Of a DNA stretch of 13,367 nt, positions 1 through 13,367 are shown one piece after another. The notes under the pieces are model-generated. The model did not search any database, was not told where the DNA came from, and saw only the letters and a list, made by a program, of their open reading frames with translations. Position 1 is the first letter of the stretch; every line of letters starts with the position of its first letter. Source of the stretch: a virus (taxonomy: Duplodnaviria; Heunggongvirae; Uroviricota; Caudoviricetes); IMG/VR virus record IMGVR_UViG_2713896773_000002, positions 1-13,367 of that record. The stretch is one strand, 5' to 3'. The position numbers and the translations under genes are program-made.

Positions 1-755
1 ATCAGGAACGGCGACTGACCGCCAGCCAGCTGCGTGGCGATATCGGTGAATTGCGCCGGAAGCGTGCGCATTGCTGCGCTGTACTGACCAACGGAGATTC
101 CAGCGCGCCGGGCAGCAGCTTCCTGCCGGGATAGCGCCTCTGGTAGTACGTCAGCGACACCAGAGAGGCGCTCACGCGTCTGGTTAAGGATTGTGTTGAA
201 GTGCTCGAACTGAGCACCGTTAATGCGCCCAGCTTCGAAATGTTCCACCAGCTGTGCGTGCTGTTCATCCAACGAATTGAACGCGCGGATAGTCGGGTCG
301 ATGGATCCAAGAAGGTTCTTTAACGCTGCGGACTGCTTTTCTGCCGCCTGGGTAGCGGCTAATTCAGCCTGAGCGCGCGCCGCGGCTTCTCCGGTGTCGG
401 TCAGCTTGAGGCGGGTGTCATCCAGGATTTTGTTGTATGCCTGAAAGGTATCGGTATCCAGGAAACCTTTGGCCTGGAATTTCCGCAGCGATTCTTGCTG
501 CTCATCCAGGCGGTTTAAGGCCTTGGTAACCGGGTCGATATTCTCCAGCAGCCCTTTGAGCGCGTTCTGCTGCTCCTTGAGTCCTTCGCTGCCTTGCTTC
601 GCAGATTCAGCGCCAGCGCGAAACACGCTATTCAGATCATCTGCTTTATCTACAGCACCGGCCGCCGCCTGGCCGAGTTTATCCAGTTCGTTGCTGGCTG
701 TTTTCAGGTCAGAAACATCGGCCCGCAAAGTAATCGAGGCGATCTGGTCTGTCAT
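1..755 (-). CDS. tail tape measure protein, N-terminal part (partial; continues beyond left edge of window)
   Basis: ATG at 755..753 overlaps the TAA of the upstream chaperone ORF (TAATG). I translated the minus strand from 755 down to about 241 by hand with no stop (MTDQIASITLRADVSDLKTASNELDKLGQAAAG...), coiled-coil-like Ala/Gln/Leu-rich composition, and position immediately after G/GT chaperones. Not in the ORF track because it has no stop inside the window. Confidence 0.7.
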   Translation of the reverse strand, partial: MTDQIASITLRADVSDLKTASNELDKLGQAAAGAVDKADDLNSVFRAGAESAKQGSEGLKEQQNALKGLLENIDPVTKALNRLDEQQESLRKFQAKGFLDTDTFQAYNKILDDTRLKLTDTGEAAARAQAELAATQAAEKQSAALKNLLGSIDPTIRAFNSLDEQHAQLVEHFEAGRINGAQFEHFNTILNQTRERLSGVADVLPEALSRQEAAARRAGISVGQYSAAMRTLPAQFTDIATQLAGGQSPFL

Positions 756-1398
756 TATTTCGTCTCCTTATGCATTACCTTGAGAGCCTCGCTTTCCATA
801 ATTTGAAGGTCAGCCATGCAGGCCGCCGCATCCTCAACCCCGTGTAACTCGAACATCCAGGGGAGAACGTTGTAATCAAGGCCGGTCGCCCCGCTCGCGC
901 CGACGCGCCACTGGGTTGCCAGGGCAGAGAAGATGGTGAAAGACTTCCACACAGAGGGCAGGATACCCACCTCTTCCTCCACGTCCTCAGGCGTCAAACC
1001 AAAAGCGGCTAACTCCGCGAGAGTCGGTCCCGGCGTGTACAACGCTGCGGCGACCTGCCTTAGTTTTTTTCGCGGATACCCATCAGCTCTTTGGTGTAGG
1101 CCAGACCGATGCTGTCGAACGCGCGCGGGTAGTTCTGAAGAAGGACAATAACGTTGTCGCGGGTGAACTCGTCAGGTAGTGCCCACCCCTCGACAATTTC
1201 CATGAGGTAGTCGGCCTGCGGCTCGATAGCAGCCTTTTTACCTTCAGCCGACTTTTGCAGCTTTTCATCCATAGAGCGCAGCTCTTCCAGTGTCTTGTGG
1301 CGGAAGGTAAAGGTCAGCTTGCCGTCTTCAGCACCAGCGCGCGGGATGCTGGCGGTAACGGAGAAGGTCGGGTTCGGGATCAGGGAGAATTTGGTCAT
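755..1398 (-). CDS. tail assembly chaperone G-T fusion produced by programmed -1 ribosomal frameshift (predicted)
   Basis: The -1 frame relative to G is open from the slippery site at 1070..1063 down to the TAA at 757..755, which overlaps the tape measure ATG. The ORF-track entry 755..1042 starts at a TTG and has no independent start signal. Confidence 0.55.
1060..1398 (-). CDS. tail assembly chaperone (lambda gpG-like)
   Basis: 112-aa ORF with ATG at 1398..1396 and RBS AAGGAA 5 nt upstream; sits between the major tail gene region and the tape measure gene; ends ...REKN-TAA directly on a run of seven A (minus strand). Confidence 0.65.
   Translation of the reverse strand: MTKFSLIPNPTFSVTASIPRAGAEDGKLTFTFRHKTLEELRSMDEKLQKSAEGKKAAIEPQADYLMEIVEGWALPDEFTRDNVIVLLQNYPRAFDSIGLAYTKELMGIREKN
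1063..1070 (-). other. slippery sequence for -1 frameshift (minus strand G AAA AAA C; heptamer A_AAA_AAC in G frame)
   Basis: Seven consecutive T on the plus strand at 1064..1070, i.e. AAAAAAA on the coding strand, as the last sense codons of G (GAA AAA AAC TAA). Confidence 0.55.
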
Positions 1399-1410
1399 TT
1401 CGGTTCCTTA

Positions 1411-1436
1411 GAAAAACGAAACCCGCCGTAGCGGGT
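1411..1436 (-). terminator. intrinsic terminator after the KilA-N gene
   Basis: Minus strand reads ACCCGC-TACG-GCGGGT followed by TTCGTTTTTC (stem 1421..1426 / 1431..1436; T-tract is the complement of 1411..1420). Confidence 0.55.
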
Positions 1437-1437
1437 A

Positions 1438-1968
1438 TTAGTTAATGCCGGGCAGATACATCTGGACTTCGTCGGCGACGCGATCCCGGGCTGCATGTAA
1501 TAGCTGCTTGCGACCACCAACACCCCACTTGGCCATTTGGCTGGCACACTGGCTAATTGCCTTGGTTTCAGTGTTGATGATGTGGTCGATTTTGTTCAGG
1601 CGGGACATGGCACTGATACCAAGACGCACCACTGTTCTAAATACTTCGTACACTTCAATCTCAAACTCTGGCTTTATCCAGGCGGCATAGCGGATTGCCA
1701 GAAGTTCAATGCCCCATGCACCACTTTGATCACCGCCTTTTATAACCTTAAGTGGTTGATTTTGTTCCGAAGCACTTTTTAGTGCTTTGGATTTTAGCGC
1801 TTTAACGAAGCGTTTGATCTGCGCGCTACGCAGGAAGACGCTGGGCCTTTGTGACTCAGTAGCCTCTCCGTTAGCTACCGCTGCCGCATGAAGATCGTTA
1901 AGACTGTACCGGCCTTCGTCATCAACGCGGACGGAGACCCCATTCACTGAGACGGTTGGGTGATTCAT
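1438..1968 (-). CDS. KilA-N domain protein (moron inserted in tail gene cluster)
   Basis: 176-aa ORF, ATG at 1968..1966. N-terminal half (VNGVSVRVDDEGRYSLNDLHAAA ... GAWGIELLAIRYAAWIKPEFEIEVYEVF) fits the KilA-N/APSES-like pattern as I recall it. Flanked by hairpin terminators on both sides. Confidence 0.6.
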   Translation of the reverse strand: MNHPTVSVNGVSVRVDDEGRYSLNDLHAAAVANGEATESQRPSVFLRSAQIKRFVKALKSKALKSASEQNQPLKVIKGGDQSGAWGIELLAIRYAAWIKPEFEIEVYEVFRTVVRLGISAMSRLNKIDHIINTETKAISQCASQMAKWGVGGRKQLLHAARDRVADEVQMYLPGIN

Positions 1969-2151
1969 GGTGTGTACCTTTTAAAAAGCGAACCTGTTCA
2001 CACAGAAAAGCCGCCCCAAGAGGCCCACCGGCACTAACGGCAGTTCTCAGGAACGCTTTCTGAAAGGTTCTTGGTTAGAGAGCGCGTGTGAAGGCGCAGT
2101 TTGAAAAGATGGGTAATGCGAATACAGAAAATTCGCCAGCGGTACTCATTG

Positions 2152-2176
2152 CGAAATAAAGCCCGGCGAACCGGGC
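2152..2176 (-). terminator. intrinsic terminator after the major tail protein gene
   Basis: Minus strand reads GCCCGG-TTCG-CCGGGC followed by TTTATTTCGC (stem 2161..2166 / 2171..2176), starting 9 nt after the TAA of the 2185..3117 ORF. Confidence 0.7.
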
Positions 2177-2184
2177 CTGATTGG

Positions 2185-3117
2185 TTAGCTGACAGTAACG
2201 GTGCATGCCGCCGACGTTAGGGTCTTGCCTGCGGCGTCAGTGACTTCGCAGGTATAAACGCCAGCATCACCGGATGAGACAGACGAAATGTTGAACGTCG
2301 AGGCGGTTTTGCCCGGAATTGCGGAGCTTCCTTTCTTCCACACGTAGGTGTAAGGGGCTGAGCCGCCTTGCATAACGACGGCTAAATCGAGCGCATCTCC
2401 AACACTAACTGCTTTGGTTGATGGCAGATCAGTCAGGAACGCCAGCGGCGTAACGGATGAATCGGCGATCGGGTAAATCTGCATATCCGATTCGAAGTTC
2501 ATGCGCGCTTCGTTGCTTTCCACGGCGTTGATTTCGGTCTTAGGCACCTTCTGGAAAGACACTTTGGCAGAGTAATAACGGTCCGCTTTGCCGCGCGGGT
2601 TATGGAACCACACAGCAGTGGTGTCGCTGGATTCGTCAAGTTCACTCAGACGCTTGTAAATTGCCAGCAGCGGATCGTGCGCGAAGGTGTAGACCTGCAC
2701 CACGGCGTTTTTGAAGGTCGGGATGGTACGGGCCTTATCGTCTTCAAGGAACTGCACGCTGATGGTCTGCTGGTCACCACCCTCTGTGGAGAGGGTCATC
2801 ACCTGCGGCATCGTGATCCACGTGTCGATTTTACGCAGCGTGCCCGCGCCAGTGCCTGCCGGGAATTTGGTGGTGTCAGAGGTATCGAACGAATCCAGCA
2901 CGATTTTGGTACCGGCTACGGATTTAACGCGCAGCACCATATTATCGAGTTTTAGCCAGCCGGAGCTCACCTGCACTACGTCGCCCGCCAGGATGCCAGC
3001 GGCAGATGCAACAGTCAGTTCGCATTCAGTAGCGTTAGAGGCAGCGGTAAAGGTGATGGGAGCCTGATAGGCCTTGGCCACGTTAACACGCGAGCCGTTA
3101 GGGATTGCGAATGCCAT
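2185..3117 (-). CDS. major tail (tube) protein with C-terminal Ig-like domain
   Basis: 310-aa ORF, ATG at 3117..3115 with RBS AGGAG 6 nt upstream; located between tail terminator-like gene and chaperones G/GT; C-terminal ~80 aa (…YTYVWKKGSS…GVYTCEVTDAAGK…TVTVS) looks like an Ig-like fold. Confidence 0.6.
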   Translation of the reverse strand: MAFAIPNGSRVNVAKAYQAPITFTAASNATECELTVASAAGILAGDVVQVSSGWLKLDNMVLRVKSVAGTKIVLDSFDTSDTTKFPAGTGAGTLRKIDTWITMPQVMTLSTEGGDQQTISVQFLEDDKARTIPTFKNAVVQVYTFAHDPLLAIYKRLSELDESSDTTAVWFHNPRGKADRYYSAKVSFQKVPKTEINAVESNEARMNFESDMQIYPIADSSVTPLAFLTDLPSTKAVSVGDALDLAVVMQGGSAPYTYVWKKGSSAIPGKTASTFNISSVSSGDAGVYTCEVTDAAGKTLTSAACTVTVS

Positions 3118-3140
3118 AGCACTCTCCTGAATTTAGGTAA

Positions 3141-3163
3141 TAAAAAACCCGCCATCTGGCGGG
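3141..3163 (-). terminator. intrinsic terminator-like hairpin between tail terminator gene and major tail gene
   Basis: Minus strand reads CCCGCC-AGAT-GGCGGG followed by TTTTTTATTA (stem 3148..3153 / 3158..3163), immediately after the TGA at 3166..3164. Confidence 0.5.
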
Positions 3164-3613
3164 TCAGTAGTCAGCGCGGTACTGCATGCTGACGGGAATG
3201 GTGTAGGTTATGGAGCCACTGGACCCGTTGGACGCCGAGGTTGGCCGGTCCTGGATGGGTTGTCTCACCTGCGGCGGCCCATTGATATAAACAGTCAGGT
3301 CACCATCCACCAGCGCAAGCCCTTCAGGAAATGCATCAGCGACAGATTTAGCCAGCCCTCTGGCCTGCGTCACGCCGCTGCCTGCTGGCGCAATGATGTT
3401 GAGCTGCAGGATGCCCTGATAGGTTCGCAATTGACCTTCCAGGTCTTGCCCCACCGTCTGTGCCGGCAGAACATAAACACGCCCGTATGGTGAGCTATCC
3501 GGGGGAGTAAACGGTATGTTCGGCCAGGCTACGGGCAGCCCAAGCGATAAGCAGATAACCGCAATGCGGCTCTCCAGTAGTTCAGCAATTCGCATTGACT
3601 GGTCACTGGCCAT
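3164..3613 (-). CDS. putative tail terminator / tail completion protein (gpU-like position; possibly DUF4128-type)
   Basis: 149-aa ORF with ATG at 3613..3611, directly upstream of the major tail gene; contains a WPNIPFTPP motif that I recall from tail-terminator-like families. Family assignment is from memory. Confidence 0.4.
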   Translation of the reverse strand: MASDQSMRIAELLESRIAVICLSLGLPVAWPNIPFTPPDSSPYGRVYVLPAQTVGQDLEGQLRTYQGILQLNIIAPAGSGVTQARGLAKSVADAFPEGLALVDGDLTVYINGPPQVRQPIQDRPTSASNGSSGSITYTIPVSMQYRADY

Positions 3614-4202
3614 TGCGCACCTCGCTCATTGCCTCACGGAACAACTGCGCGGCATCCAGCGCAGTGATGCCCACCATGCCGCCGGGTGCCTGGCCGGAAT
3701 GCCCGTTCTCCAGTGCTGCCGCATATGGCAGATTATTGGTGAAGAAAATCGAGCTGACCTGCCCTACCCGGAACACCTCGAGCACTGCCAGACCGCGGGA
3801 GTTGGAACCCTGGCCGGAAGCGTCGGGGGTGTCGTTGGATTGGCTTGGCTGGCTGTCAAAGCCCACATACCAGTTGTTTTTAAACCGCCCGCCGACATAG
3901 CCCTCAGGCTTTTTGATGTCCATCGAGTCGTTGACGCGCAGGCCGCGCTTAAGTCGTCCTGATTTGGTCAGATTAGCCGGGTCATCACGCAGGGTCGCGT
4001 TATGCTCCCGCACCGCAGTGTTGTACGCCGTCGCGGTCTGGTTGACCTGCCAGATATCCGGTTGGCCCACCGGGGACATCTCAACCAGTTGAGCGAGGAT
4101 TTTAATACCCGTCCGGCGCACCACCTCGTCCATCTCCTGCTTCGAGCCATCCACGAACAGCTGAATGGCAGCCAGGAACGGCTGATTAACAGACCCCACC
4201 AT
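3603..4202 (-). CDS. putative neck / tail completion protein
   Basis: 199-aa ORF, ATG at 4202..4200, tightly packed between head-tail joining and tail terminator genes; call is by synteny only. Confidence 0.35.
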   Translation of the reverse strand: MVGSVNQPFLAAIQLFVDGSKQEMDEVVRRTGIKILAQLVEMSPVGQPDIWQVNQTATAYNTAVREHNATLRDDPANLTKSGRLKRGLRVNDSMDIKKPEGYVGGRFKNNWYVGFDSQPSQSNDTPDASGQGSNSRGLAVLEVFRVGQVSSIFFTNNLPYAAALENGHSGQAPGGMVGITALDAAQLFREAMSEVRNGQ

Positions 4203-4204
4203 AG

Positions 4205-4558
4205 TTACGCCCTCAGCTGGATGTTGTAGGAGATCAGCACATCGGCAGGCTTAACCGGATTCGGCTGTACCACGCGCCACTTTTTGCTGTCGATTTCGAT
4301 GCGGTCATCGATGCGCACTTCCGTCTCGAAAGTGGCCGCCAGCTTCTTGTCGCCGGTGGCGATCAGGGAACCGTCGATTTCGCGGGAGGAGTATTCGGTG
4401 ATAACACCGGTTACGGTCGCGGTAATGGCCGGGGTGGTGACCTCTTTGCCGAACTGGTCACGGATGGTGCCGCCGCCGCGGGTAAGCTGATATGCCTTCC
4501 CGTTCTCGGTCAGCAGTCGGGTCGCGGTCGCGCGCATGCGGCGATAGTCGATTGCCAT
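4205..4558 (-). CDS. putative head-tail joining protein
   Basis: 117-aa ORF, ATG at 4558..4556; size and position typical of head-tail adaptor/joining proteins. Confidence 0.4.
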   Translation of the reverse strand: MAIDYRRMRATATRLLTENGKAYQLTRGGGTIRDQFGKEVTTPAITATVTGVITEYSSREIDGSLIATGDKKLAATFETEVRIDDRIEIDSKKWRVVQPNPVKPADVLISYNIQLRA

Positions 4559-4559
4559 G

Positions 4560-5042
4560 CTACCCCCTTTCGACCCGGACCTGGTTGCCGCCCACTACAA
4601 GCCCGCGCAGTGCGGAATAGAACCATGGGAATGACGGAGAAGCTTTATTCGTTCCCGGCTCATACTGGACTGTTACCGCACCCTCGACGCGCTCCATCGT
4701 AACCGCCCCACCGCCAGCGACCGACGGGGTGAGGTCAATCTCCTGCGATTCGATGGCCAGGCGACATTGAGCATCAATCAGGCGCTGTGGAATCGCATCA
4801 TTCGACAGGTCAACACCATCGAAGCGCACGCCGGAACGCGGCCAGGATAGAGGCTGTGATGCGCTGGAACGCTGACCGCGCCAGGCCTTCCCTTCCAGAA
4901 AGTCCATTGCCTGCATCAGCATCTGGCTGCATTCGCCATCTTCAGCAGGGATGGTGTATCCGCGCCCCGCAGCGAACGCGCGCAGATCACCAACGCTGGC
5001 ATAGCTGTTGAAGTCAGACGAATGGGGATCGGCATTAATCAT
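4560..5042 (-). CDS. putative head-tail connector / head completion protein
   Basis: 160-aa ORF, ATG at 5042..5040 with RBS AGAGGAG 8 nt upstream; call is by position in the module. Confidence 0.35.
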   Translation of the reverse strand: MINADPHSSDFNSYASVGDLRAFAAGRGYTIPAEDGECSQMLMQAMDFLEGKAWRGQRSSASQPLSWPRSGVRFDGVDLSNDAIPQRLIDAQCRLAIESQEIDLTPSVAGGGAVTMERVEGAVTVQYEPGTNKASPSFPWFYSALRGLVVGGNQVRVERG

Positions 5043-5055
5043 CTCAGAGCTCCTC

Positions 5056-5367
5056 TCAGGCTTCGAAAAGCTTCTGCTTTAACGCATATCCCATCAACGC
5101 CCACAACTCGCTTTCGGCGTTCTCAATAGCAATTTTCTCGCCAATTTCAGCGTTGTCGTTAGCGGAGGAAACTGAGCACGACGGATTCCCTGTTACTGCG
5201 AATCCGTTTTGAGTGGTGATGACCGCCCAGCGAAGCACCTGCCCGGTGACGGATACGTGCTTCACGATCTCGGCATGCTTAATATTCGCCTTCAACTCGC
5301 CCAGCGTAACGCGCGGCGCGTTCAAGCCTTTGGCCTGAATTTCCTGCTCAATATCTTTATCGCTCAC
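5056..5367 (-). CDS. hypothetical phage protein (head/connector region), GTG start
   Basis: 103-aa ORF whose start codon is GTG at 5367..5365, with a strong RBS GGAGGA 6 nt upstream. Confidence 0.45.
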   Translation of the reverse strand: MSDKDIEQEIQAKGLNAPRVTLGELKANIKHAEIVKHVSVTGQVLRWAVITTQNGFAVTGNPSCSVSSANDNAEIGEKIAIENAESELWALMGYALKQKLFEA

Positions 5368-5369
5368 AG

Positions 5370-5570
5370 TTACTCCTCCAGTCGCCAGTCCAGCGCCAGC
5401 CAGTTATCGACTTCGTCAGGGTGAACCTCAGCGCTCAGCGGACCGCCGGGGAACTCCGGGGTATCTCGCATCATAGCCACCAGCTCAATACCTGTTTGTT
5501 CAGCGCCGTTCTGCGCGGCAAGCTTTTCAGCCTCACGCTGCGCGCTCTGCTCTTTGGTTAATCCGGCCAT
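5370..5570 (-). CDS. small acidic hypothetical protein (66 aa) downstream of capsid gene
   Basis: ORF track gives 5370..5660, but that start overlaps the capsid gene by 52 nt. An internal ATG at 5570..5568 has a perfect AGGAGG 4 nt upstream and lies just past the capsid terminator, so I take 5570 as the real start. Confidence 0.45.
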   Translation of the reverse strand: MAGLTKEQSAQREAEKLAAQNGAEQTGIELVAMMRDTPEFPGGPLSAEVHPDEVDNWLALDWRLEE

Positions 5571-5580
5571 TGGGCCTCCT

Positions 5581-5604
5581 GAAAACAAAGGGGCCGAAGC
5601 CCCC
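5581..5604 (-). terminator. intrinsic terminator after the major capsid gene
   Basis: Minus strand reads GGGGC-TTCG-GCCCC followed by TTTGTTTTC (stem 5590..5594 / 5599..5603), immediately after the capsid TAA at 5611..5609; the T-tract overlaps the RBS of the next gene. Confidence 0.65.
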
Positions 5605-5608
5605 TGGG

Positions 5609-6748
5609 TTAACCCATGATGATGGCGGAATGACGTGGCGCCACAGCAGCCACACCCCATGCCAGGCCCACTTCATAACGCACCTGACGGTACTGGCGGT
5701 ACAGCGCCACCTGGAAGGTGATGCCAGATACCGGGTCGGTCACATTCATGACGTCATCAGCAGTATCGCCACCTTCAGGCATCGCCGGGGTACGGCTGGC
5801 CAGCAGGAATGCCCCGCGGTCAAACGCCATGTTCGGTACAAATTCGCTCAACACAGTGACATCAGCCTGGTCTGCCAGATCCTGACGGAGGCCCGGCGCG
5901 CTAATAGTGATAGTGGAAGACGTAGCCGCAACGACCAGATACTGATTGTCATCACCGGCGAACTTCACCGCAGTACCTGCAGCAATACCGCCGGTGCCAG
6001 CAGAGATAGCGATGATGATATCGCCCTCTTTCTTCGCGCCATTGACCTTATAGCCAGCAGCAGCGCTTTTCGCGGTACGCTTGATGCTGAAGGATTCGTG
6101 GAGGTTGAAGCCCATGATGCGACCGATAACACCTTCACGCAGCAGTTGGTCGGTTCCCGCTTCGTTCGCTTTGAAGAGTACAGCCTGTTTACCACGGATG
6201 GATGCCATCGCTTCGCCACCCAGCACCATACGCAAATCAGTAGTCGGCGCACCGTTATCGGTCAGGATTTGACGCGCCAACGCAGCATCAGTCAGATCGT
6301 CTTTGATGCTGAACGGGGTATTCTTTGGCGCGCCAACAGCGCGGGAGGAGTTGAGGTACAGCGCAGCGAGATCCGCATCCACTTCGTTCGCCAGCGCACG
6401 GAAAGCCTGCTTGAACTGGTCAGCCAGGATGGTGTTGTAGGTACCAGCCGGGCCCAGAGCCAATTGCTCTTCACCATTCCATTTCACCGGGGCCATTTTG
6501 GATTTGGTGATTTTGACATCCACACCACCGATGGTCTGGTCGCCAGAATTAGGCGCTGAAGGTCCAGGGACAATATCTTCAGTGGTGGCTGCAGGTGCGA
6601 CTGGCGCACGTACGGTCTGGTCTTTTGCAGCAGCATCCGCTTTCGCGTCACGCGCCACCGCAGGAATAAAACCAGTTTGCTCGCGGGACACTACGTACAG
6701 CGCGGTATAGATGGTCGGGATCAGACCAGTAAGGGTATTGCCTGCCAT
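5609..6748 (-). CDS. major capsid protein (possibly P22 coat-like family)
   Basis: 379-aa ORF, ATG at 6748..6746 with RBS AAGGAG; directly downstream of a scaffold-like gene and followed by a strong terminator. Family call is from recalled similarity of the N-terminal region. Confidence 0.65.
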   Translation of the reverse strand: MAGNTLTGLIPTIYTALYVVSREQTGFIPAVARDAKADAAAKDQTVRAPVAPAATTEDIVPGPSAPNSGDQTIGGVDVKITKSKMAPVKWNGEEQLALGPAGTYNTILADQFKQAFRALANEVDADLAALYLNSSRAVGAPKNTPFSIKDDLTDAALARQILTDNGAPTTDLRMVLGGEAMASIRGKQAVLFKANEAGTDQLLREGVIGRIMGFNLHESFSIKRTAKSAAAGYKVNGAKKEGDIIIAISAGTGGIAAGTAVKFAGDDNQYLVVAATSSTITISAPGLRQDLADQADVTVLSEFVPNMAFDRGAFLLASRTPAMPEGGDTADDVMNVTDPVSGITFQVALYRQYRQVRYEVGLAWGVAAVAPRHSAIIMG

Positions 6749-6765
6749 TTATGGCTCCTTTCGAT

Positions 6766-7518
6766 TTAATCGACGATGCTGACGCCGTCTTTCAGCGCTG
6801 CTTGCTTGCCAGCGTTATCCAGGGAATCAAACGCATCGCGTTTCATGGTTTTTTGCCCGGCCTGGTGCTGCGACTGGTGAGAACCGCCGCCGCTGTTACC
6901 GGACGCTTTGAGGATGTAATCTTTCTGCGGATGCGACTCGACCAGAGACTCCAGGGCCTCATCAAAGCTGGCTAACTCGCCTGGCTTGGTGCGAGAGAAC
7001 ACCTTGTTGCCCTGCCCGTCGTACGCCACGACTTTGCCGTCTTCGATTTTGAAGTTCTGACCGAAGTGGGAACGCACGAACTCAGCCGGGATCGCCATCT
7101 TCTCTGAAATGAATTTGGAGCCACCGAAGCGCCCGCCGATCATCTCGTCGTAGAGCTGGCTTTCGAGCTGTTTGGTCTTGCCGTTCGCTTCATCCAGCTG
7201 CTGCTGGAATACCTTGGTAATCTCAGCCTTAACCTGGTCAACAGCGCCAGCGTCGATCAGTTTTTTCTGGTCGATTTTGGTCATCATCTCCAGGGCTTCG
7301 AGCGCCTTGGTCGGATCGGTGATGCCAGAGAATTTCGCGAGACTGGCTTCCGCCGCCTCCTTCGCTTCACGGTGAGTTTTAGCTTCACCATTCAGGGAGG
7401 TGATTTTGGTCATCGCTGCGGCTGCGTCGAACGGGATTTCTTTGCCATCATCATGGATGTACACAGGCATACCGTTTTCAACGACCACATTTCCGTTAGC
7501 ATCAAGTTTCAGTTTCAT
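6766..7518 (-). CDS. putative capsid scaffolding protein
   Basis: 250-aa ORF, ATG at 7518..7516 with RBS GGAG; charged, Lys/Glu/Ala-rich and coiled-coil-like; lies between the MuF-like gene and the capsid gene. Confidence 0.5.
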   Translation of the reverse strand: MKLKLDANGNVVVENGMPVYIHDDGKEIPFDAAAAMTKITSLNGEAKTHREAKEAAEASLAKFSGITDPTKALEALEMMTKIDQKKLIDAGAVDQVKAEITKVFQQQLDEANGKTKQLESQLYDEMIGGRFGGSKFISEKMAIPAEFVRSHFGQNFKIEDGKVVAYDGQGNKVFSRTKPGELASFDEALESLVESHPQKDYILKASGNSGGGSHQSQHQAGQKTMKRDAFDSLDNAGKQAALKDGVSIVD

Positions 7519-7599
7519 TGTTTTTGCTCCAGCCTTCCGGCCATTGGTAATAGGTCATCCGACCCGGTCACCGCGTCGCATCCGCTCAGCGGCAGGCAT

Positions 7600-7624
7600 A
7601 AAAAAGGCCACCCGAAGGCAGCCT
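7600..7624 (-). terminator. intrinsic terminator-like hairpin upstream of scaffold gene
   Basis: Minus strand reads GGCTGCC-TTCG-GGTGGCC followed by TTTTTTAT. The stem has two G-U wobble pairs that would be C-A mismatches on the plus strand, so it is only stable in the minus-strand transcript. Confidence 0.45.
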
Positions 7625-7625
7625 G

Positions 7626-7835
7626 TTAGATAAATTCGACGGTTATTACGCCGCGCAGTTTGCGGGTATAGACTTCATCGCGCTTTCGCTTATGGACCCG
7701 AATGGGGTATGGGTAGAAGCATGCTATTCCTCGCTTAACATCCGCCCATACGCAGCGCTTGACCTCGTTGCCGTTAACGAACACTCGGCGCTTACCGCGG
7801 CCATCGCCCACATGGTGAAAATCGTCATCTCGCAT
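7626..7835 (-). CDS. small basic hypothetical protein (69 aa)
   Basis: ORF track gives 7626..7853 starting at TTG; an in-frame ATG at 7835..7833 is preceded by GGGGGGTGG. It starts 24 nt after the DUF2829-like gene and is followed by a terminator. Lys/Arg-rich with two His and two Cys. Confidence 0.4.
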   Translation of the reverse strand: MRDDDFHHVGDGRGKRRVFVNGNEVKRCVWADVKRGIACFYPYPIRVHKRKRDEVYTRKLRGVITVEFI

Positions 7836-7858
7836 AGACCACCCCCCAAGCAACTGGT

Positions 7859-8323
7859 TTAGAGAATTTGCCAGTCATCAGCCAAGACGTCGGTTTGGCT
7901 TGGTGCCCAAGGCACGCGAGCGCCATTTGGGTATGGCATAGCACCATTGCCCGGCACAGGATAAATTAAACGAATGTACGGCAGGTCCACAGATGGCGAC
8001 TGCTGGACCAGCTCAAGCCACAGGCCCTTGCCGTTCCAGCCTGCGCGGGTGACACGCTTGCCTGATTTCAGGGCTTCGACAGCCAGTCCGAAGCTAAGCC
8101 CCGCCACTGGTCGGTAGGCTTTGTCGAACACATCTTTCGGACTCCAGCTCACATACCCGTTGAAGCGATCGGTGTTTGGCTTTCCGCCATCCAGATACTC
8201 GACGAGATAACCTTCATCACTTCCGTTTTCGTCACTTGGTAACTCCCAACCACGAAAGTCGTTATATGCCAGACGGGTCATCGGGTAAGCATTGATGAGC
8301 TTCACGCCAATATGTTGAGTCAT
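7859..8323 (-). CDS. DUF2829-like (Tad2-like, anti-Thoeris sponge family) domain protein with N-terminal extension
   Basis: 154-aa ORF, ATG at 8323..8321. C-terminal half (…EALKSGKRVTRAGWNGKGLWLEL…VPWAPSQTDVLADDWQIL) matches the motifs I recall for DUF2829. This is a recollection, not a search result. Confidence 0.5.
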   Translation of the reverse strand: MTQHIGVKLINAYPMTRLAYNDFRGWELPSDENGSDEGYLVEYLDGGKPNTDRFNGYVSWSPKDVFDKAYRPVAGLSFGLAVEALKSGKRVTRAGWNGKGLWLELVQQSPSVDLPYIRLIYPVPGNGAMPYPNGARVPWAPSQTDVLADDWQIL

Positions 8324-8343
8324 TGTTTTATTACCTTATTCAG

Positions 8344-9447
8344 TTATTCAAATGCCGACGCATCCACGCGGCGCAATTCGTCCAGGGTAAGGAACTCCCC
8401 GGCATCATTGAACATCTCCGGCACGGTGATTTTGCCGTCACGCAGCATCTGCGCGCGAGTAACGCCCAGCACCTGCTCCTGCCGCGCGTAAGGCTGCCTC
8501 GCAAGCCATTCGGCATAGCTGGTATGCGCTGGCACCTGTCCGTCCATTGAAGCGCGCGTGGCGTTGCTCAGCTCGCCTGAGGATATTTGCATTTCCTCCC
8601 ACGATTTAGTGATCAGGATTTCGCAGGAGCGGCAGCAAAAGTGGATTTTGCCGGGGCCGCGCAGATACGGAATTGCATGGCCCAGCGGCTTTCCATCGAG
8701 CGAGTAGAGTTTGCGGTCGCGGATGATGCACCACTGGCTGGTGTGGGTGTCCAGAGTCGAAGACCACTGTTTGGCCTTCACGATATCGCTATTGGCTTGT
8801 GCAAACTCCTGGCGCGCCGTTGCTGCCATATGGTTCACCGCGGTGCGGGCAACAACAGCAAGGTCACGACGTGAGGCATTGATAACCCCGTCTTGGCGGT
8901 TAAGTTGCGGCGTGCCGGCGACGCGCTTCACGATCTGCTCGACGGTTTCACCCTGAAGAAATCCGGTACGCACCGCACTGGTGATTTTATCCAGCCGATC
9001 GGATTCAAGCTTTTGGCCCCACTCTTTCAGCAATCTCCCCTGAAAAGGTTGCGCCACCGCAGAGGTGTAGACCTGCTCTGGGGCAATGCTTTGCAGCGGG
9101 ACGTGTTTCAGCACCTGCCGGGGTATAAGGCTGCTGAACAGGTCCATCTGATACCCGGTCTCATAATCCGTGTAACGTGCCAGCTCACGCGCCAGGGAAG
9201 AATTAACCGGTTCATAGGCCTGCTGATTCAGGTCGCGCACGCCAGCCAGCAGCGAAGCTAGGCGGCGGGCGCTGTAGGTGTCGGCACGCTTGCCGTCCAG
9301 CAGCACCAGCAGTTTTGCAGCAAGGTCAGCATCCAGCCTGTTCAGCAACGACACCATGCGCCGGGCGACGCCAGTACCGTAGCGGTTCACATAAAGCCCG
9401 TGCGCTATGGTTTCGTCCTGAAGCCTGTCATTGACGGAACGGGCCAT
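8344..9447 (-). CDS. phage head morphogenesis protein (SPP1 gp7 / Mu F-like minor head protein)
   Basis: 367-aa ORF, ATG at 9447..9445 with RBS GAGGTG. Contains …LDGKPLGHAIPYLRGPGKIHFCCRSCE…, which I recognise as typical of MuF-family proteins. Confidence 0.75.
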   Translation of the reverse strand: MARSVNDRLQDETIAHGLYVNRYGTGVARRMVSLLNRLDADLAAKLLVLLDGKRADTYSARRLASLLAGVRDLNQQAYEPVNSSLARELARYTDYETGYQMDLFSSLIPRQVLKHVPLQSIAPEQVYTSAVAQPFQGRLLKEWGQKLESDRLDKITSAVRTGFLQGETVEQIVKRVAGTPQLNRQDGVINASRRDLAVVARTAVNHMAATARQEFAQANSDIVKAKQWSSTLDTHTSQWCIIRDRKLYSLDGKPLGHAIPYLRGPGKIHFCCRSCEILITKSWEEMQISSGELSNATRASMDGQVPAHTSYAEWLARQPYARQEQVLGVTRAQMLRDGKITVPEMFNDAGEFLTLDELRRVDASAFE

Positions 9448-9459
9448 ATCACACCTCGC

Positions 9460-9975
9460 CTATCGTTCTGGTATTAGCATCGTCACAGCGCGATATGCGG
9501 CGCTTGCTGGCATTCTTGAATAGCCGACACCTTTGCATCTTCCGCATTCTTTCTCAACAACTCTCCCCCACAGCTCTGTTTTTGATATATCAACCGCACG
9601 GCCTGTACCGTGGCAATCTCTGCACCTTGCTCCCGGCGTCGCGGCACTACGGCAATAATCCGCATAAGCGAATGTTGCGAGCACTTGCAGTACCTTTGCC
9701 TTAGTATTTCCTTCAAGCTTTGCCACACCACGGTATTTCCCCGATACCTTGTGTGCAAATTGCATCAGATAGTTGATAGCCTTTTGTTTGTCGTTCTGGC
9801 TGAGTTCATGCTTACCGCAGAATGCAGCCATTCCGAATCCGGCTTGTGATTGCGCCATCCCCATAGCAGCCATCACATCAGTACCGGAAAGAGAGTCAGA
9901 AGCCGTAGCCCGTGGTGAGTCGCTCATCATCGGGCTTTTTGGCGAATGAAATTTAGCTACGCTTTCGAGTCTCAT
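9460..9975 (-). CDS. Q: antitermination protein Q (lambda Q-like), apparently truncated at the 3' end
   Basis: 171-aa ORF that reads like lambda Q over its first ~169 residues, including the zinc-finger region CRDCHGTGR…CGRCKG. It ends …TMLIPER-TAG where I recall lambda Q continuing for ~40 more residues. Start overlaps the ninH stop (ATGA). Confidence 0.7.
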   Translation of the reverse strand: MRLESVAKFHSPKSPMMSDSPRATASDSLSGTDVMAAMGMAQSQAGFGMAAFCGKHELSQNDKQKAINYLMQFAHKVSGKYRGVAKLEGNTKAKVLQVLATFAYADYCRSAATPGARCRDCHGTGRAVDISKTELWGRVVEKECGRCKGVGYSRMPASAAYRAVTMLIPER

Positions 9976-10160
9976 CGTCTTCCCCTCTTGCCCTGTTTGA
10001 CCATCAGGACGCCGTTAACTATTACATGACGCTCGCCTTTGCTGTCTCGGTTGTACTTGAGCACTGTTCCTCTTGCGCAGGAAAGCACCCTTGCCACTTC
10101 GGTCTGATTGCCTCGTGTCTGGATAAGAAGCTCTGGTATCGTTTGAATTGTGGCGTTCAT
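9972..10160 (-). CDS. ninH: NinH-like small DNA-binding protein
   Basis: 62-aa ORF with a …GNQTEVAR…SRGTV…KY…IVN.VLMV… pattern resembling lambda NinH; lies immediately upstream of Q, with start overlapping the rusA stop. Confidence 0.7.
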   Translation of the reverse strand: MNATIQTIPELLIQTRGNQTEVARVLSCARGTVLKYNRDSKGERHVIVNGVLMVKQGKRGRR

Positions 10161-10522
10161 ACGTTCTCCAGTTCGGTGATTTTTATTCCAAGCCTTCCGC
10201 CTGGTACTTTCACACCACGAATTACGCGAATGTCATCGAATTGCTCGTCGTCTTCCGCAAATCCGGCGTGGATAAGGGAGTCGAGTAAACCTTTCAGGAT
10301 GTTATCGAGGTCGCGGCGGCGGGAGTCTGGAACGTCTGCGATGACTTTGATGCGGAGTCGTGATTTGGTGAAAATATCTAACTTGAGTTGGTGGATGATT
10401 TGCTGAACGTCTTTTCGGTATTTCTGGCCTTTATCGCTGATGTAGTATTGGCTTCCCCGTCTTCGCCAGTAGGTATTCACCGACGGCGGGTATGGAAGCA
10501 CAAACTGATATTCGTTCACCAT
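10157..10522 (-). CDS. rusA: Holliday junction resolvase RusA
   Basis: 121-aa ORF; …[13 protein letters not shown]… and …[32 protein letters not shown]… match the RusA family pattern as I recall it. Confidence 0.8.
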
Positions 10523-10592
10523 CGATTCCAGTAAGGTTGATTTGGTCGGAAGCGGTTATCTTCTTTGCATTCACCGCACCGATAACATCGCA

Positions 10593-10928
10593 TCATACTT
10601 CCCGATCTCCCCATCTCGCTTTCCACTCCAGAGCCAGTCTCGCTTCGTCTGACCACTTAACGCCACGCTCTGTACCGAATGCCTGTATAAGCTCTAATAG
10701 CTCCGCAAATTCGCTTACACGCATCCTGCTGGTTGACTGTCCTATTACCACAAAGCCATTCCCGGCAAGGTTAGGAACAACGTCCTGCTGCTTTAATGCT
10801 GCGGTAAACACACACTTCCAGCTTTCTGCATCCAGCCAGCGACCATGCCATTCAACCTGACGAGAGACGTCACCTAAGCAGGCCCATATCGTCTGCCACG
10901 CGCAGCAGGTGCATTTGATGCTGTGCAA
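10593..10928 (-). pseudogene. ninB: ninB (orf) homolog lacking its 5' end; only TTG start available
   Basis: From [27 protein letters not shown]… onward it is near-identical to lambda NinB as I recall it, but the ~45-50 N-terminal residues are absent. An in-frame TGA lies at 10943..10941, the only start is TTG at 10928, and the 5' end overlaps the helicase 3' end by 55 nt. Confidence 0.55.
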
Positions 10929-12241
10929 ATCTGTCTGGCTTCATCCTGGTCACATGCAACAAAGTGTCCGTTACAGAACCGCTGGTAAACCGTACCAAGC
11001 GAGCCAAAACGGTTTTTCGTCACAATGATTTCAGCAAATGGCGCGGCGCTACTGTTCTCGTCATATACAGCTTCCCGATAGAGCATGATGATTGAGTCTG
11101 CGTCCTGTTCAATGCTTCCTGAATCACGCAAATCTGCGTTTGTCGGGCGTTTGTTTGGTCGCTTCTCAACATCGCGCGAAAGCTGACTCAGGGAGATAAC
11201 AGGCGTTTTCAGGTCTTTCGCCATCGCCTTCAGGCTTCCTGAGATATGAGCAATTGCGAGGTCGTTGCGGTCTGCTTTCGGCTTCTCAATCAGGCCAAGA
11301 TAATCCGCCATGATGAGTGACAGGTTTGGATTTTCCTGTTTGTGCCGTTCTGCGATTGAGCGTATTTCTTCGACCGATAACCGCGAGGCATCGACTACCC
11401 ATACATCCAAATCTGCAAGCTGACTCATGCCGTTAGCAACGCGCGCCCAGCCCTCGTCATCCATCGATGCAGGATTTCGCAGCACGCTAACCGACATCCT
11501 CCCGGCGTTGGCAATGCTTCGCTCTGCAATCTGCAATGCGCTCATTTCCATTGAGAAAATCAATACTCCGCGCCGGACGTCAGAACCAGGAATAACGCGG
11601 CTTGCAACGCCTTCGGCAATCTTCAGCGCCAGTTCGGTTTTCCCCATACCAGGACGAGCAGCGATTATCACCAGGTCTTCCGCGTTCATCCCTCCGGTGA
11701 TGGCATCAAGTTCTTCGATTCCGGTCTTCAGGGTATCTGACTCTTCTCCGTTCCTCAGACGCCTGTCAAGCGTGTCAGTGTAGTCAGTAATGATTTCCCC
11801 TAACCGTACAGGTTTAACCTCGTCACGGGGCTTTCTGATGGCTGAGAGACGCTTTACAAGCTCGTCCATCGCCTGACTCGATGTATCGATGGTTCCGCTC
11901 TGAATTGGTTCACGCATTTCATCCATGATTTCCAGCACCAGACGGCGGTGATAGTTATCCGCGACCATTCCGGCATATCCCTTCAGGTTTGCGGCACTCG
12001 GGCAGTTCTTACTGGTCATCAGGATTGACGTGAAATGCTCCTCTCCGCACGCCTCGGCAACCATCAGCGCGTCGATTAGGTTTCTGTTTCTCGCCTGCTT
12101 GCGGATAACCTCGAAGGCTTTCCGGTAGAGCGGAATTGAAAACGCTTCCGGCTCCAGCGTTGCCAGAACGTCACTGGCAGTTGGTGTTAATCCACCAATC
12201 AGCAGGCCACCGATAACGCTCGCTTCGATATCCTGTCTCAT
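10874..12241 (-). CDS. replicative DNA helicase (DnaB family; phage P-gene functional analogue)
   Basis: 455-aa ORF with Walker A (…[13 protein letters not shown]…) and typical DnaB-like C-terminal features; start overlaps the stop of the O-like gene (ATGA). Confidence 0.85.
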
Positions 12242-13185
12242 GCTATCCCCCTGTCTGCAAACTTCCCTTCCCGTACTCCCGTTAACGAATCTTCCCTCAG
12301 CAGGTAATCAAAATCTGCCGTCCAGCCAGTGTCGTTGTCTCCGAAGTAAAACGGCTTGGCCTGATGTACAAACGCCCTGACATACGCTCTGAAACCGTCC
12401 ACGTTTGGCGTTTTCAGTTGCGGGATGATTTTCTTCAGGCGGCGTTTGCGTTTCTCGTTGACCGCAACAGCGTGTGGCAGTCTGTCACCGACTTCGGTGT
12501 TGTAGGCGTTCAGGAAGGATTCGTAGTCGATTCGTTCTGCCTTGCGACGTTCATGTTTAACCTGCCCATCGCCTCCCCCATTGGGGGGTAGGGGGGTATT
12601 ATTTATATTCTTGTTAATACCTTCTTGTTCATGATGTGCGGTTGTTTGTGCGGCTTCATGTGCGCTTTCATGTGCGGAATGTACGCTGAAAGCCGCGCCA
12701 TTACTGACTTCATCATGTGCGGCATCATGTGCGGTTGTTTGTGCGGCTTCATGTGCGGGTGAATTGTCCATTTTTTGAGCATATTCATGGTAATTTGTGA
12801 TGGTGATCACACGACCTTTTTGCTTCTCTCCATCAATGGTGATCATCCCCTCTTTCACAAAAACCTGAAGCATCCGCTCAACCTGATCACGGCTTGCCGG
12901 CTTGCCATGCCTGTCGCATAACTGAAGACCTAAATCAGCTGCTGTCACAACCAGTTGACCGGGTTGCAGATGCCATTCATGACCTTTGAAATTCGCTTTG
13001 TATGGCTTTCTGGCGGCATTCAGGAGAAGGTTTTCCCACAGGGTGCGAAGATAAACATCTTTCGCCCATGACTGTTTCAGAATGCTCCGGTACAACGGAA
13101 TGTAACCAGTTTTCTGGTTCTCCATCCTGTTGCTCCTGCGCTCGTGTGCGGCGCTGAAATCGTAGATTTTTGCTGTATTGCTCAT
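12238..13185 (-). CDS. replication initiation protein (lambda O-like) containing an internal iteron array
   Basis: 315-aa ORF, ATG at 13185..13183; N-terminus [10 protein letters not shown]… resembles lambda O (MTNTAKILNF…). The central linker is encoded by the repeated DNA iterons and it sits immediately upstream of the helicase. Confidence 0.7.
12634..12758. repeat. putative replication origin iterons: two clusters of four 8-mers (cATGTGCGG / tTGTGCGG) on a 12-bp period
   Basis: Copies start at 12634, 12646, 12658, 12670 and at 12715, 12727, 12739, 12751. An exact 31-nt direct repeat occurs at 12634..12664 and 12727..12757. AT-rich DNA flanks both sides (12598..12629 and 12761..12800) and a G/C inverted repeat CCCCCA-T-TGGGGG sits at 12575..12587. 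Confidence 0.6.
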
Positions 13186-13367
13186 AACTACCTGCCTTGA
13201 CGAAAGACCTTAAGAACATCGTTAAACTGACTTACGGATATGTCTTCTTTGAGCAGCTTTTCCAGAAATGCGTTTGGAATGAACGTATATCCCTCCTCTT
13301 TTGGTATCCTACTGGCATGTTCGATTATTACTACAACCAGTGGCTGGAGTCAGATAACAAAACCCCA

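Follow-up and report, generated by a model that had tools for sequence, protein, structure and literature searches.

Accessory genes in the late operons of phages are usually explained as morons, that is, as units of promoter, gene and terminator. The gene studied here, which encodes a 176-aa KilA-N domain protein in a 13,367-nt stretch of tailed-phage DNA (IMG/VR record IMGVR_UViG_2713896773_000002, positions 1 to 13,367, hereafter the window), resembles the lambdoid morons HK97 gp15, lambda lom and bor in being an extra gene between tail genes that is absent from close relatives, has a foreign base composition and is followed directly by a terminator. It differs from them in having no detectable promoter of its own, in the conserved upstream RNA elements that argue for read-through, and in a structured leader that sequesters the Shine–Dalgarno (SD) sequence and is common to unrelated cargo genes. 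To our knowledge, a structured leader of this kind has not been described for classic morons. We propose that the KilA-N gene is probably, on balance, the cargo of a mobile accessory-gene cassette in an HK639-like prophage, expressed by read-through and controlled in translation by its leader, and that it belongs to a leader-sharing family instead of being a promoter–gene–terminator unit.

The closest concept in the literature to such leader cassettes is the promoter-early stem-loop (PeSL), described for T4-type phages as a regulatory cassette that is mobile (Arbiol et al. 2010, PMC2839356). Like PeSLs, the leaders are short conserved regulatory modules beside diverse non-essential genes that provide plausible homology for modular shuffling, although for this likeness in cargo shuffling recombination at the leader is here only a putative feature. 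Unlike a PeSL, which has a strong early promoter and a terminator stem-loop, the leader cassette lacks a promoter and features a ~130-nt leader of a translated gene, with an SD/anti-SD helix and a loop–bulge contact, in temperate lambdoid and P22-like phages. A comparable RNA architecture is reportedly found in repZ (repA) of the IncI-alpha and IncB plasmids, whose translation is said, from the work of Asano and Mizobuchi, to be controlled by a long-range pseudoknot. As in repZ, the loop of an upstream hairpin pairs with a short distal sequence in an SD-sequestering structure. The repZ target is said to open only on translation of a leader peptide (repY), with an antisense RNA competing for the loop, whereas the phage leaders have no conserved leader open reading frame (ORF) and the loop pairs in them with a bulge that is always exposed and lies ~25 nt from the SD sequence.

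Two groups of phage proteins also invite comparison. BstA of prophage BTP1 (PMC8585504) and P1 KilA share with the window protein an N-terminal KilA-N or KilA-N-like DNA-binding domain, and differ from it in C-terminus, genomic position and presumed timing of expression. The Rha proteins, encoded in the late operons of P22 (orf201) and phi80, are inhibitors of phage growth or DNA synthesis when the host is deficient in integration host factor (IHF), and both the literature (PMC4936722) and the phi80 annotation place rha in the late operon under IHF control, in agreement with the read-through proposed here. No molecular explanation of this long-standing IHF-dependent growth-inhibition phenotype was found in the literature available.

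A conserved leader is predicted to sequester the ribosome-binding site

The KilA-N ORF is preceded by a 216-nt non-coding gap (1969..2184, minus strand, on which all genes of the window lie). The original prediction had placed the terminator of the major tail gene in this gap, where it is indeed found, but had not recognised most of the region as a conserved structured leader, which is predicted to sequester the ribosome-binding site (RBS). Upstream regions from 56 distinct loci follow a common plan. Its long hairpin has a basal helix of anti-SD and SD strands, helices P1 to P4, a 6–7-nt bulge on the 3' side and a variable apex. In the window, folds, the covariance model and covariation define a hairpin of ~93 nt (1976..2068, minus strand) with a basal helix, P0, in which ACCUUU (2068-2063) pairs with AAAGGU (1981-1976), the strand that contains the SD sequence AAGG (1980-1977). 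The hairpin continues through P1 (AGAAAGCG / CGCUUUUU), P2 (CCUG / CAGG), P3 (AGAA / UUCU) and P4 (GCCGUU / GGCGGC) to an apical hairpin (GCC-GGUG-GGC), and the 3' bulge reads GUGUGAA (2003-1997, minus strand). When 21 diverse members were folded as single sequences, one long SD-pairing hairpin formed in all of them, at -35 to -50 kcal/mol, and the base of the hairpin is the SD/anti-SD pairing, 8–12 nt before the ATG, in every member. A 153-nt region of the window folds alike (-45.8 kcal/mol, z=-2.2).

Because a MAFFT alignment of the leaders evaluated with RNAalifold was too poor in register, it was replaced by an alignment of 54 distinct leaders to a covariance model, R1, with 13 sequences as its seed. 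In this alignment, whose pairing percentages are inflated by the fit to the model, 94.7% of cells form standard pairs, compared with 73.6% after shuffling and 40–50% with slid partners. The number of cells changed on both sides is 305, against 79 in shuffles and 19–48 with slid partners, and the covariation score is 0.566 (0.206 shuffled, 0.06–0.09 slid). Compensatory double changes occur in 30 of the 31 leader pairs, and the observed values exceed those of all 500 shuffles. The alignment holds 186 G.U pairs and 22 A.C combinations, an excess that fits an RNA with the sequence of the coding strand. R1 matches the window leader, which is part of the seed alignment, with 118.6 bits, while leaders outside the seed, including those of P22 rha, phi80 rha and HK639_13, score 41–106 bits.

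No Rfam 15 family, C4 antisense RNA included, reached its gathering score anywhere in the window, and at E≤10 the region 1900-2230 gave only chance-level matches to unrelated eukaryotic and viral families. Two other readings of the leader sequence were set aside. A candidate LexA box near the start codon (CTGT-N4-ACAG) has the wrong spacing and corresponds to the P3, bulge and P2 part of the hairpin, and a switch using two GAGCC copies as alternative partners was dropped, copy 1 being the anti-SD strand of the basal helix in the folds.

An upstream hairpin loop covaries with the leader bulge

A second hairpin, H0 (2082..2097, minus strand), with a GCGC stem and the loop CUUCACAC, is present in both the minimum free energy and the centroid folds, and such a hairpin sits 8–21 nt upstream of the long leader hairpin. 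The stretch UUCACAC of its loop (2092-2086) is complementary to the leader bulge GUGUGAA (2003-1997) at 7/7 nt. This match recurs across the family, as 53 of the 54 leaders have at least five nucleotides complementary to the bulge that fall in the H0 loop, and at least 16 different matched loop/bulge pairs are found. These include UCGCAC/GUGCGA, UCUCAC/GUGAGA, UUCGUAC/GUACGAA, UUAGCAC/GUGCUAA and CCACAU/AUGUGG, as well as UUCUCGU/ACGAGAA, UUCUCC/GGAGAA, UGCCC/GGGCA and CCGAAA/UUUCGG. For a test of the contact, H0 was identified with the bulge sequence left out of account, and MAFFT was used to align neutral constructs. In this neutral alignment, double changes are seen at six of the seven kissing pairs, in 32 cells compared with 7.6 in shuffles, a value that none of 500 shuffles attained. 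An independent set of viral contigs was retrieved with a pattern that left the fourth bulge base free; judged at that base, the H0 loop has the complementary base in all 46 distinct leaders.

We read the complementarity as a probable kissing or pseudoknot contact. Many different loop/bulge pairs accompany near-identical KilA-N proteins, and a single pair type can accompany different cargo; a protein operator would leave this unexplained, whereas an RNA–RNA contact explains it. Tandem cassettes in a single phage also use different pairs, for example UCGCAC/GUGCGA beside UCACAC/GUGUGA; such cassettes were found at three loci, with leaders at 4862-4954 and 5898-6003 (L033), 4911-5021 and 5894-6003 (L052), and 3529-3639 and 4834-4943 (L063). 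At a further locus (L056, 5579-5685, plus strand), a leader copy of 55.6 bits is followed only by an 11-codon ORF, with no matching H0 loop found there, which suggests a degenerate cassette; an intact KilA-N cassette follows just downstream.

The leader precedes Rha and other cargo genes

R1 matches were obtained upstream of the rha genes of phi80 (106 bits, E 3e-28; L234, JX871397, 43670-43777) and P22 (51.6 bits, E 1.8e-12; L112, NC_002371, 3039-3147), upstream of HK639_13 and the Escherichia coli Phage_Tail_Tip genes that occupy the same slot as the window gene (41–48 bits), and before extra genes next to KilA-N in several genomes. Both rha leaders also have an H0 loop that matches the bulge, and an upstream terminator. 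A second leader copy in phi80 (47 bits, L234 45264-45354, plus strand) lies directly upstream of PHI80_66, which encodes a hypothetical protein similar to N15 gp59, and the phi80 region that runs from the lysis genes to cos thus has two of these cassettes.

The rha starts annotated in P22 (GTG at 3076) and phi80 (43739) fall inside the hairpin, where these upstream in-frame 'starts' have no SD sequence. The SD-associated in-frame ATGs are 69 nt further down in P22 (3145) and 36 nt further down in phi80 (43775), and the annotated Rha proteins are therefore probably 23 and 12 aa too long, respectively. On reading the window leader, no start codon or ORF for a leader peptide was seen.

A cargo census was made on 80 viral contigs retrieved with the leader pattern. 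Rha (51 contigs) and KilA-N (17) predominate, followed by a second Phage_pRha group and a small 97–111-aa family (three each), ANT/KilAC proteins (two), a T5orf172/MUG113 protein (one) and other single ORFs without a recognised family (two). At another locus, an HNH+HTH gene is also cargo of the leader.

Comparison of the tail-gene slot and mobility of the cassette

The KilA-N gene (1438..1968, minus strand; ATG start) was delimited from the ORF list, Pfam and PHROG, and the original observation is correct for the coordinates that it gave. As had also been proposed, it breaks the order of tail-tube, G, T and tape-measure genes. Domain matches identify a major tail (tube) protein upstream of the slot (2185..3117, minus strand; Phage_tail_3, E=9.6e-45, plus Ig_3 and Ig_2) and the G-like (1060..1398, minus strand; Phage_TAC_4) and T-like (755..1042, minus strand; DUF1799) tail assembly chaperones downstream, and in loci that encode an identical KilA-N protein the tape-measure gene comes next after the G and T genes. 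The terminators expected on either side of the gene both fold. That of the major tail gene (2153..2178, minus strand; GGCCCGG-UUCG-CCGGGC then UUUAUUU, -14.1 kcal/mol) was not flagged in a consensus terminator scan, and the homologous site in HK639 carries a terminator annotation. The downstream terminator (1411..1436, minus strand; ACCCGC-UACG-GCGGGU then UUCGUUUUUC, -12.1 kcal/mol, z=-2.98) was flagged by the scan and lies immediately ahead of the G chaperone RBS; it is also found behind the other genes that occupy the slot.

Comparison of related tail modules showed that the insert is absent or replaced in relatives. The flanks in the window are 87% identical to those of phage HK639, where the slot holds a different 226-aa gene between annotated terminators. 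Complete E. coli genomes matching the query numbered 13. The slot is empty (65 nt) in ET729 at 95% flank identity, other genes occupy it in the prophages of ABWA45 and VREC0761, and in GN25 the match is restricted to the KilA-N gene, which sits in a different tail module. In most of the other genomes the flanks match and the slot holds 'tail tip fiber/DUF1983' genes, either single or with a second gene. The alternative slot cargo consists of 226–290-aa proteins with a Phage_Tail_Tip (lambda J-like) segment, a C-terminus reading ...ALKPGGLL and variable N-termini (L001 3765-4445; L003 2264-3136; L004 2264-3055; L033 ~4955-5770). When empty and filled slots are aligned, the insert extends over ~2150..1411, and the GC content at third codon positions (GC3) is 0.51 in the KilA-N ORF compared with 0.65–0.70 in its neighbours. 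The left end of the insert (2111..2152, minus strand) combines a weak hairpin (UUCGC..GCGAA) with a U-run and the box GUAUUCGCAUUACCC. Judged by eye, in comparison with the empty slot of ET729 and with the upstream regions of relatives, it is similar to the stretch that follows the cassette's own upstream terminator elsewhere.

The KilA-N gene, ~130 nt of upstream DNA and the downstream terminator recur together, at 79–83% nucleotide identity, in Salmonella phage 29485 and the E. coli GN25 prophage, whose tail module is unrelated to that of the window (a second siphophage lineage: Phage_tail_2 / DUF6246 / TMP_3). Homologues with 75–94% protein identity occupy several late-operon positions: between DUF6246 and the tape-measure region in the second siphophage lineage, between Rz and the small terminase gene in the P22-like phages ST104, SE1 and MG40, after Rz in ST64B, and, within the lysis cassette of Plesiomonas prophages, between endolysin and Rz. 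All of them are co-oriented with the late genes and have 180–216 nt of non-coding DNA in front. No recombinase gene was seen beside the cassettes in the loci examined. Among 75 viral contigs with enough upstream sequence, lysis genes lie upstream on the same strand in 62 and tail genes in two, and none has a reference match on the opposite strand; the tail-module position of the window is thus a minority location. The empty slot of ET729, the different genes in HK639 and other E. coli prophages and the occurrence of the cassette at no fewer than three other late-operon positions in unrelated phages bear out the independent acquisition that had been proposed, and on these comparisons the KilA-N gene is confirmed as an acquired accessory insert and not a tail component. 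An accessory gene in a tail-gene slot is itself an ordinary kind of thing.

One prophage with an identical KilA-N cassette (L010) also has, 3' of its tape-measure gene, an Arc/Arc/Bro-N-P22_AR_C cluster resembling the P22 immI antirepressor region (11029-12387), which indicates that the tail region of such phages has several accessory slots.

The KilA-N protein

The KilA-N domain of the original prediction is real: Pfam KilA-N (PF04383) matches residues 9-113 (nt 1630-1944) with E=3.8e-15 and 56.1 bits, above the curated cut-off of 23.8 bits, and the profile also matches all 18 aligned homologues. PHROG 129 matches the whole protein (E=4.6e-58), and 506 homologues were found across Enterobacterales at E≤0.001. 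P1 KilA, the namesake of the domain, is toxic. The C-terminal 63 aa (nt 1441-1629), close to the 65 aa that the original prediction had singled out for a domain search, are strongly conserved in the homologue alignment, with the motif C-A-S-x-M-A-x-W-G-x-G-G-R-K, and a search of 1.8 billion representative proteins with this segment returned nothing outside the same KilA-N subfamily. Three viral contigs (L125, L132 and L188) carry a second, divergent KilA-N-type cargo behind the same leader; its sequence starts MKIVPLNYKGE..., and a C-terminal segment, ...AREMARWRWDKP..., is reminiscent of the WGxGGRK motif.

Other searches with the protein were less informative. No PADLOC model matched at E≤1, NCBIfam gave nothing useful, and a sequence search of the PDB returned only a marginal match to a MarR-family protein (E 0.0019). 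An AlphaFold2 model based on 18 close homologues has a predicted local distance difference test (pLDDT) score of 61, with the C-terminus as a single long helix of low confidence. Tail-assembly-interference (Tai) systems were checked and are unrelated.

The window gene shares with P22 and phi80 rha a similar protein size, co-orientation in the late operon and a weak co-linear C-terminal resemblance ending PG(I/L). A weak alignment of the C-terminus to ORF11CD3 of P22 Rha, with E 0.075 in BLASTP and E 0.026 (probability 1.9%) in hhalign, is not significant, and Pfam gave no ORF11CD3 match in the protein at E≤5. Unlike Rha, the protein has KilA-N as its N-terminal domain, the only Pfam domain detected, and not Phage_pRha; the window gene also lies in the tail module and not, as in P22 and phi80, after the lysis genes. 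The ANT (PF03374)/KilAC and P22_AR domains were likewise absent in the Pfam search. As a best guess, held tentatively, the protein may be a Rha-like, dose-sensitive DNA-binding factor that acts late in infection.

Expression of the cassette and alternative explanations

The original prediction regarded the gene as a self-contained moron expressed from the prophage, a view that the upstream region does not support. Nothing resembling a sigma-70 promoter was predicted in 900-3300. Alignments point to one degenerate -10-like box, TCTAAC (2074..2079, minus strand), which lies between H0 and the leader, has no -35 element and is not conserved across lineages, one of which has TATAAT at this position; in the window it is probably not a promoter. 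Since the H0 loop, upstream of this box, covaries with the leader bulge, H0 and the leader should be on one RNA. H0 begins 1 nt after the T-run of the tail-gene terminator in HK639 and 12 nt after the terminator in Plesiomonas, and together with the lack of a conserved promoter this indicates an RNA that starts upstream, by read-through from the late operon. Of the hallmarks of a moron, variable presence between conserved genes, a predicted terminator directly 3' and a deviant GC3 are found at the sequence level, whereas the promoter scan and the alignments revealed no promoter of its own. We infer that read-through of late transcripts with leader-gated translation is more likely than autonomous expression in the lysogen.

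In the mechanism that we propose, the cassette would consist of an upstream terminator, H0, the ~93-nt SD/anti-SD hairpin, the cargo ORF and a downstream terminator, and antiterminated late transcription would read through the upstream terminator into it. With the SD sequence buried in a very stable helix, translation would remain low until the hairpin is opened or processed. RNase III is our leading guess for opening or cutting the leader hairpin, by analogy with other phage leaders. The loop–bulge contact may lock the closed state or, as in IncI-alpha repZ, activate translation, and the diversity of the loop/bulge pairs could ensure that tandem cassettes on a shared polycistronic RNA do not pair with one another. 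The protein produced, with its DNA-binding domain and conserved, putatively helical C-terminus, would then be dose-sensitive, Rha-like and late-acting.

Several points weigh against this proposal. The z-score of the window fold relative to shuffles is no better than -2.2, and the 54-leader alignment (A6), being fitted to R1, overstates the pairing percentages. Read-through expression and translational gating are inferences from sequence, the function proposed for the protein is a best guess, and the AlphaFold model is poor. The lineage with a perfect TATAAT between H0 and the leader may have a second, shorter transcript. In addition, the gene for antiterminator Q is truncated and abuts a head gene in this contig, from which the late promoter may be missing.

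We consider it unlikely that the gene is instead an autonomous moron, insulated by the terminators, in which a sigma-70 promoter within the 216-nt gap would drive expression in the repressed prophage, with a role in conversion, exclusion or regulation. Flanking terminators, foreign base composition, presence or absence among relatives and the TATAAT of one lineage would all fit such a unit, and tail-cluster morons such as HK97 gp15 are known (cited in PMC8585504 and PMC11364771). Yet the promoter scan was empty, the window has TCTAAC with no -35 in place of a conserved box, H0 covaries with the leader bulge from a position upstream of that box, and HK639 and Plesiomonas leave only 1–12 nt between terminator and H0. 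A transcriptome paper on ST64B does not name the homologous gene among lysogenically expressed loci, which is an absence of mention only (PMC7067206). Rather unlikely, too, is an Ant-like antirepressor that would bind and inactivate the repressor of its own phage or of a co-resident prophage. In favour are the annotations of a homologue in Providencia phage PSTCR8lys ('antirepressor') and of P22 rha ('anti-repressor'), the ANT/KilAC proteins that are alternative cargo of the same leader, and the existence of trans-acting antirepressors in Salmonella prophages (PMC3121763). These annotations are not experimental, however, the protein has neither an ANT/KilAC nor a P22_AR domain, and a late-transcribed gene would come too late to induce its own phage. 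This idea concerns only the activity of the protein and is compatible with the cassette model. A BstA-like abortive-infection defence, in which a KilA-N protein made in the lysogen senses the DNA replication of an incoming phage and aborts infection, is very unlikely. BstA is a prophage accessory gene product with a KilA-N-like N-terminal domain (PMC8585504), and KilA-N is the sole recognised domain of the window protein, but BstA is not among the homologues of the latter and PADLOC gave no match. The KilA-N-like region of BstA alone covers residues 32-147, whereas the whole window protein has 176 aa with a different, short C-terminus, and its gene lies in the late operon with no predicted promoter and not beside the repressor.

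The hairpin might also act as DNA, as an integron-attC-like or other recombination site that moves the cargo. Structural conservation despite sequence variation, together with an extrahelical bulge and an apex that varies, at the border of swappable cargo, would suit such a site, and the conceptually similar PeSL cassettes of T4-type phages drive shuffling (PMC2839356). We nevertheless regard this as highly improbable, because the hairpin base is exactly the SD/anti-SD pairing before the ATG of every member, G.U pairs exceed A.C, the loop–bulge contact fits RNA tertiary structure, no recombinase gene accompanies the cassettes, and homologous recombination in the conserved flanks explains the shuffling. 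A role for the protein as a conserved part of this tail type, in its structure or assembly, is scarcely credible. Its gene is inside the tail module and co-oriented with it, and the second siphophage lineage has the gene in all loci retrieved, a sample that is biased by having been retrieved with this protein as the query. Against this role, the slot is empty in ET729 with otherwise near-identical tail genes and holds other genes in HK639 and elsewhere, the gene follows lysis genes in P22-like podoviruses, ST64B and Plesiomonas phages, and the domain is a DNA-binding one.

Novelty and implications

Two things appear to be new, namely a leader that is shared and has a covarying kissing contact, and the grouping of KilA-N, Rha and other cargo into one cassette family; no description of the leader was found in a literature search of incomplete coverage. 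A wider claim can be put forward only with some reserve: H0 and the SD-sequestering leader may represent a previously undescribed class of cis-regulatory RNA, carried by mobile accessory-gene cassettes of temperate enterobacterial phages including P22, phi80, HK639 and ST64B. Orthogonal 'address' kissing pairs would then gate the translation of dose-sensitive DNA-binding proteins on antiterminated late transcripts, the chassis would serve as a recombination handle for cargo exchange between phages, and this control might underlie the Rha/IHF phenotype. If true, this would offer a testable way in which toxic late accessory proteins are held at trace levels and a natural set of orthogonal RNA–RNA 'address codes' on one polycistronic transcript, and the covariance model would be a handle for finding cassettes and correcting start codons. 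A role in lysogenic conversion should not be assumed for the KilA-N gene.

Other features of the window

The window is the entire draft contig LDYI01000171.1 (GCA_001309485.1). Its Q antiterminator gene (9460-9975, Pfam Antiterm) is truncated, encodes 171 aa and is separated by 12 nt from a gene for Mu-F-like head morphogenesis (8344-9447). The match to Q regions of E. coli breaks off at ~9465, the truncated Q protein was found in this one contig only, and the window lacks lysis, terminase and portal genes as well as the late promoter. At the junction of the Q and head genes (9447-9475) there is either a misassembly or a deletion, which would have removed the late promoter; the cassette analysis is unaffected in both cases.

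An Ig-like domain (residues ~217-310, nt 2185-2466, minus strand; Ig_3, Ig_2 and I-set matches) closes the major tail protein, and domains of this kind are frequently displayed on tail tubes. Between the Mu-F-like gene and a scaffold-like DUF6651 gene, a 154-aa protein (7859-8323, minus strand) features a Tad2-like (Thoeris anti-defence 2) domain (E=4.6e-20).

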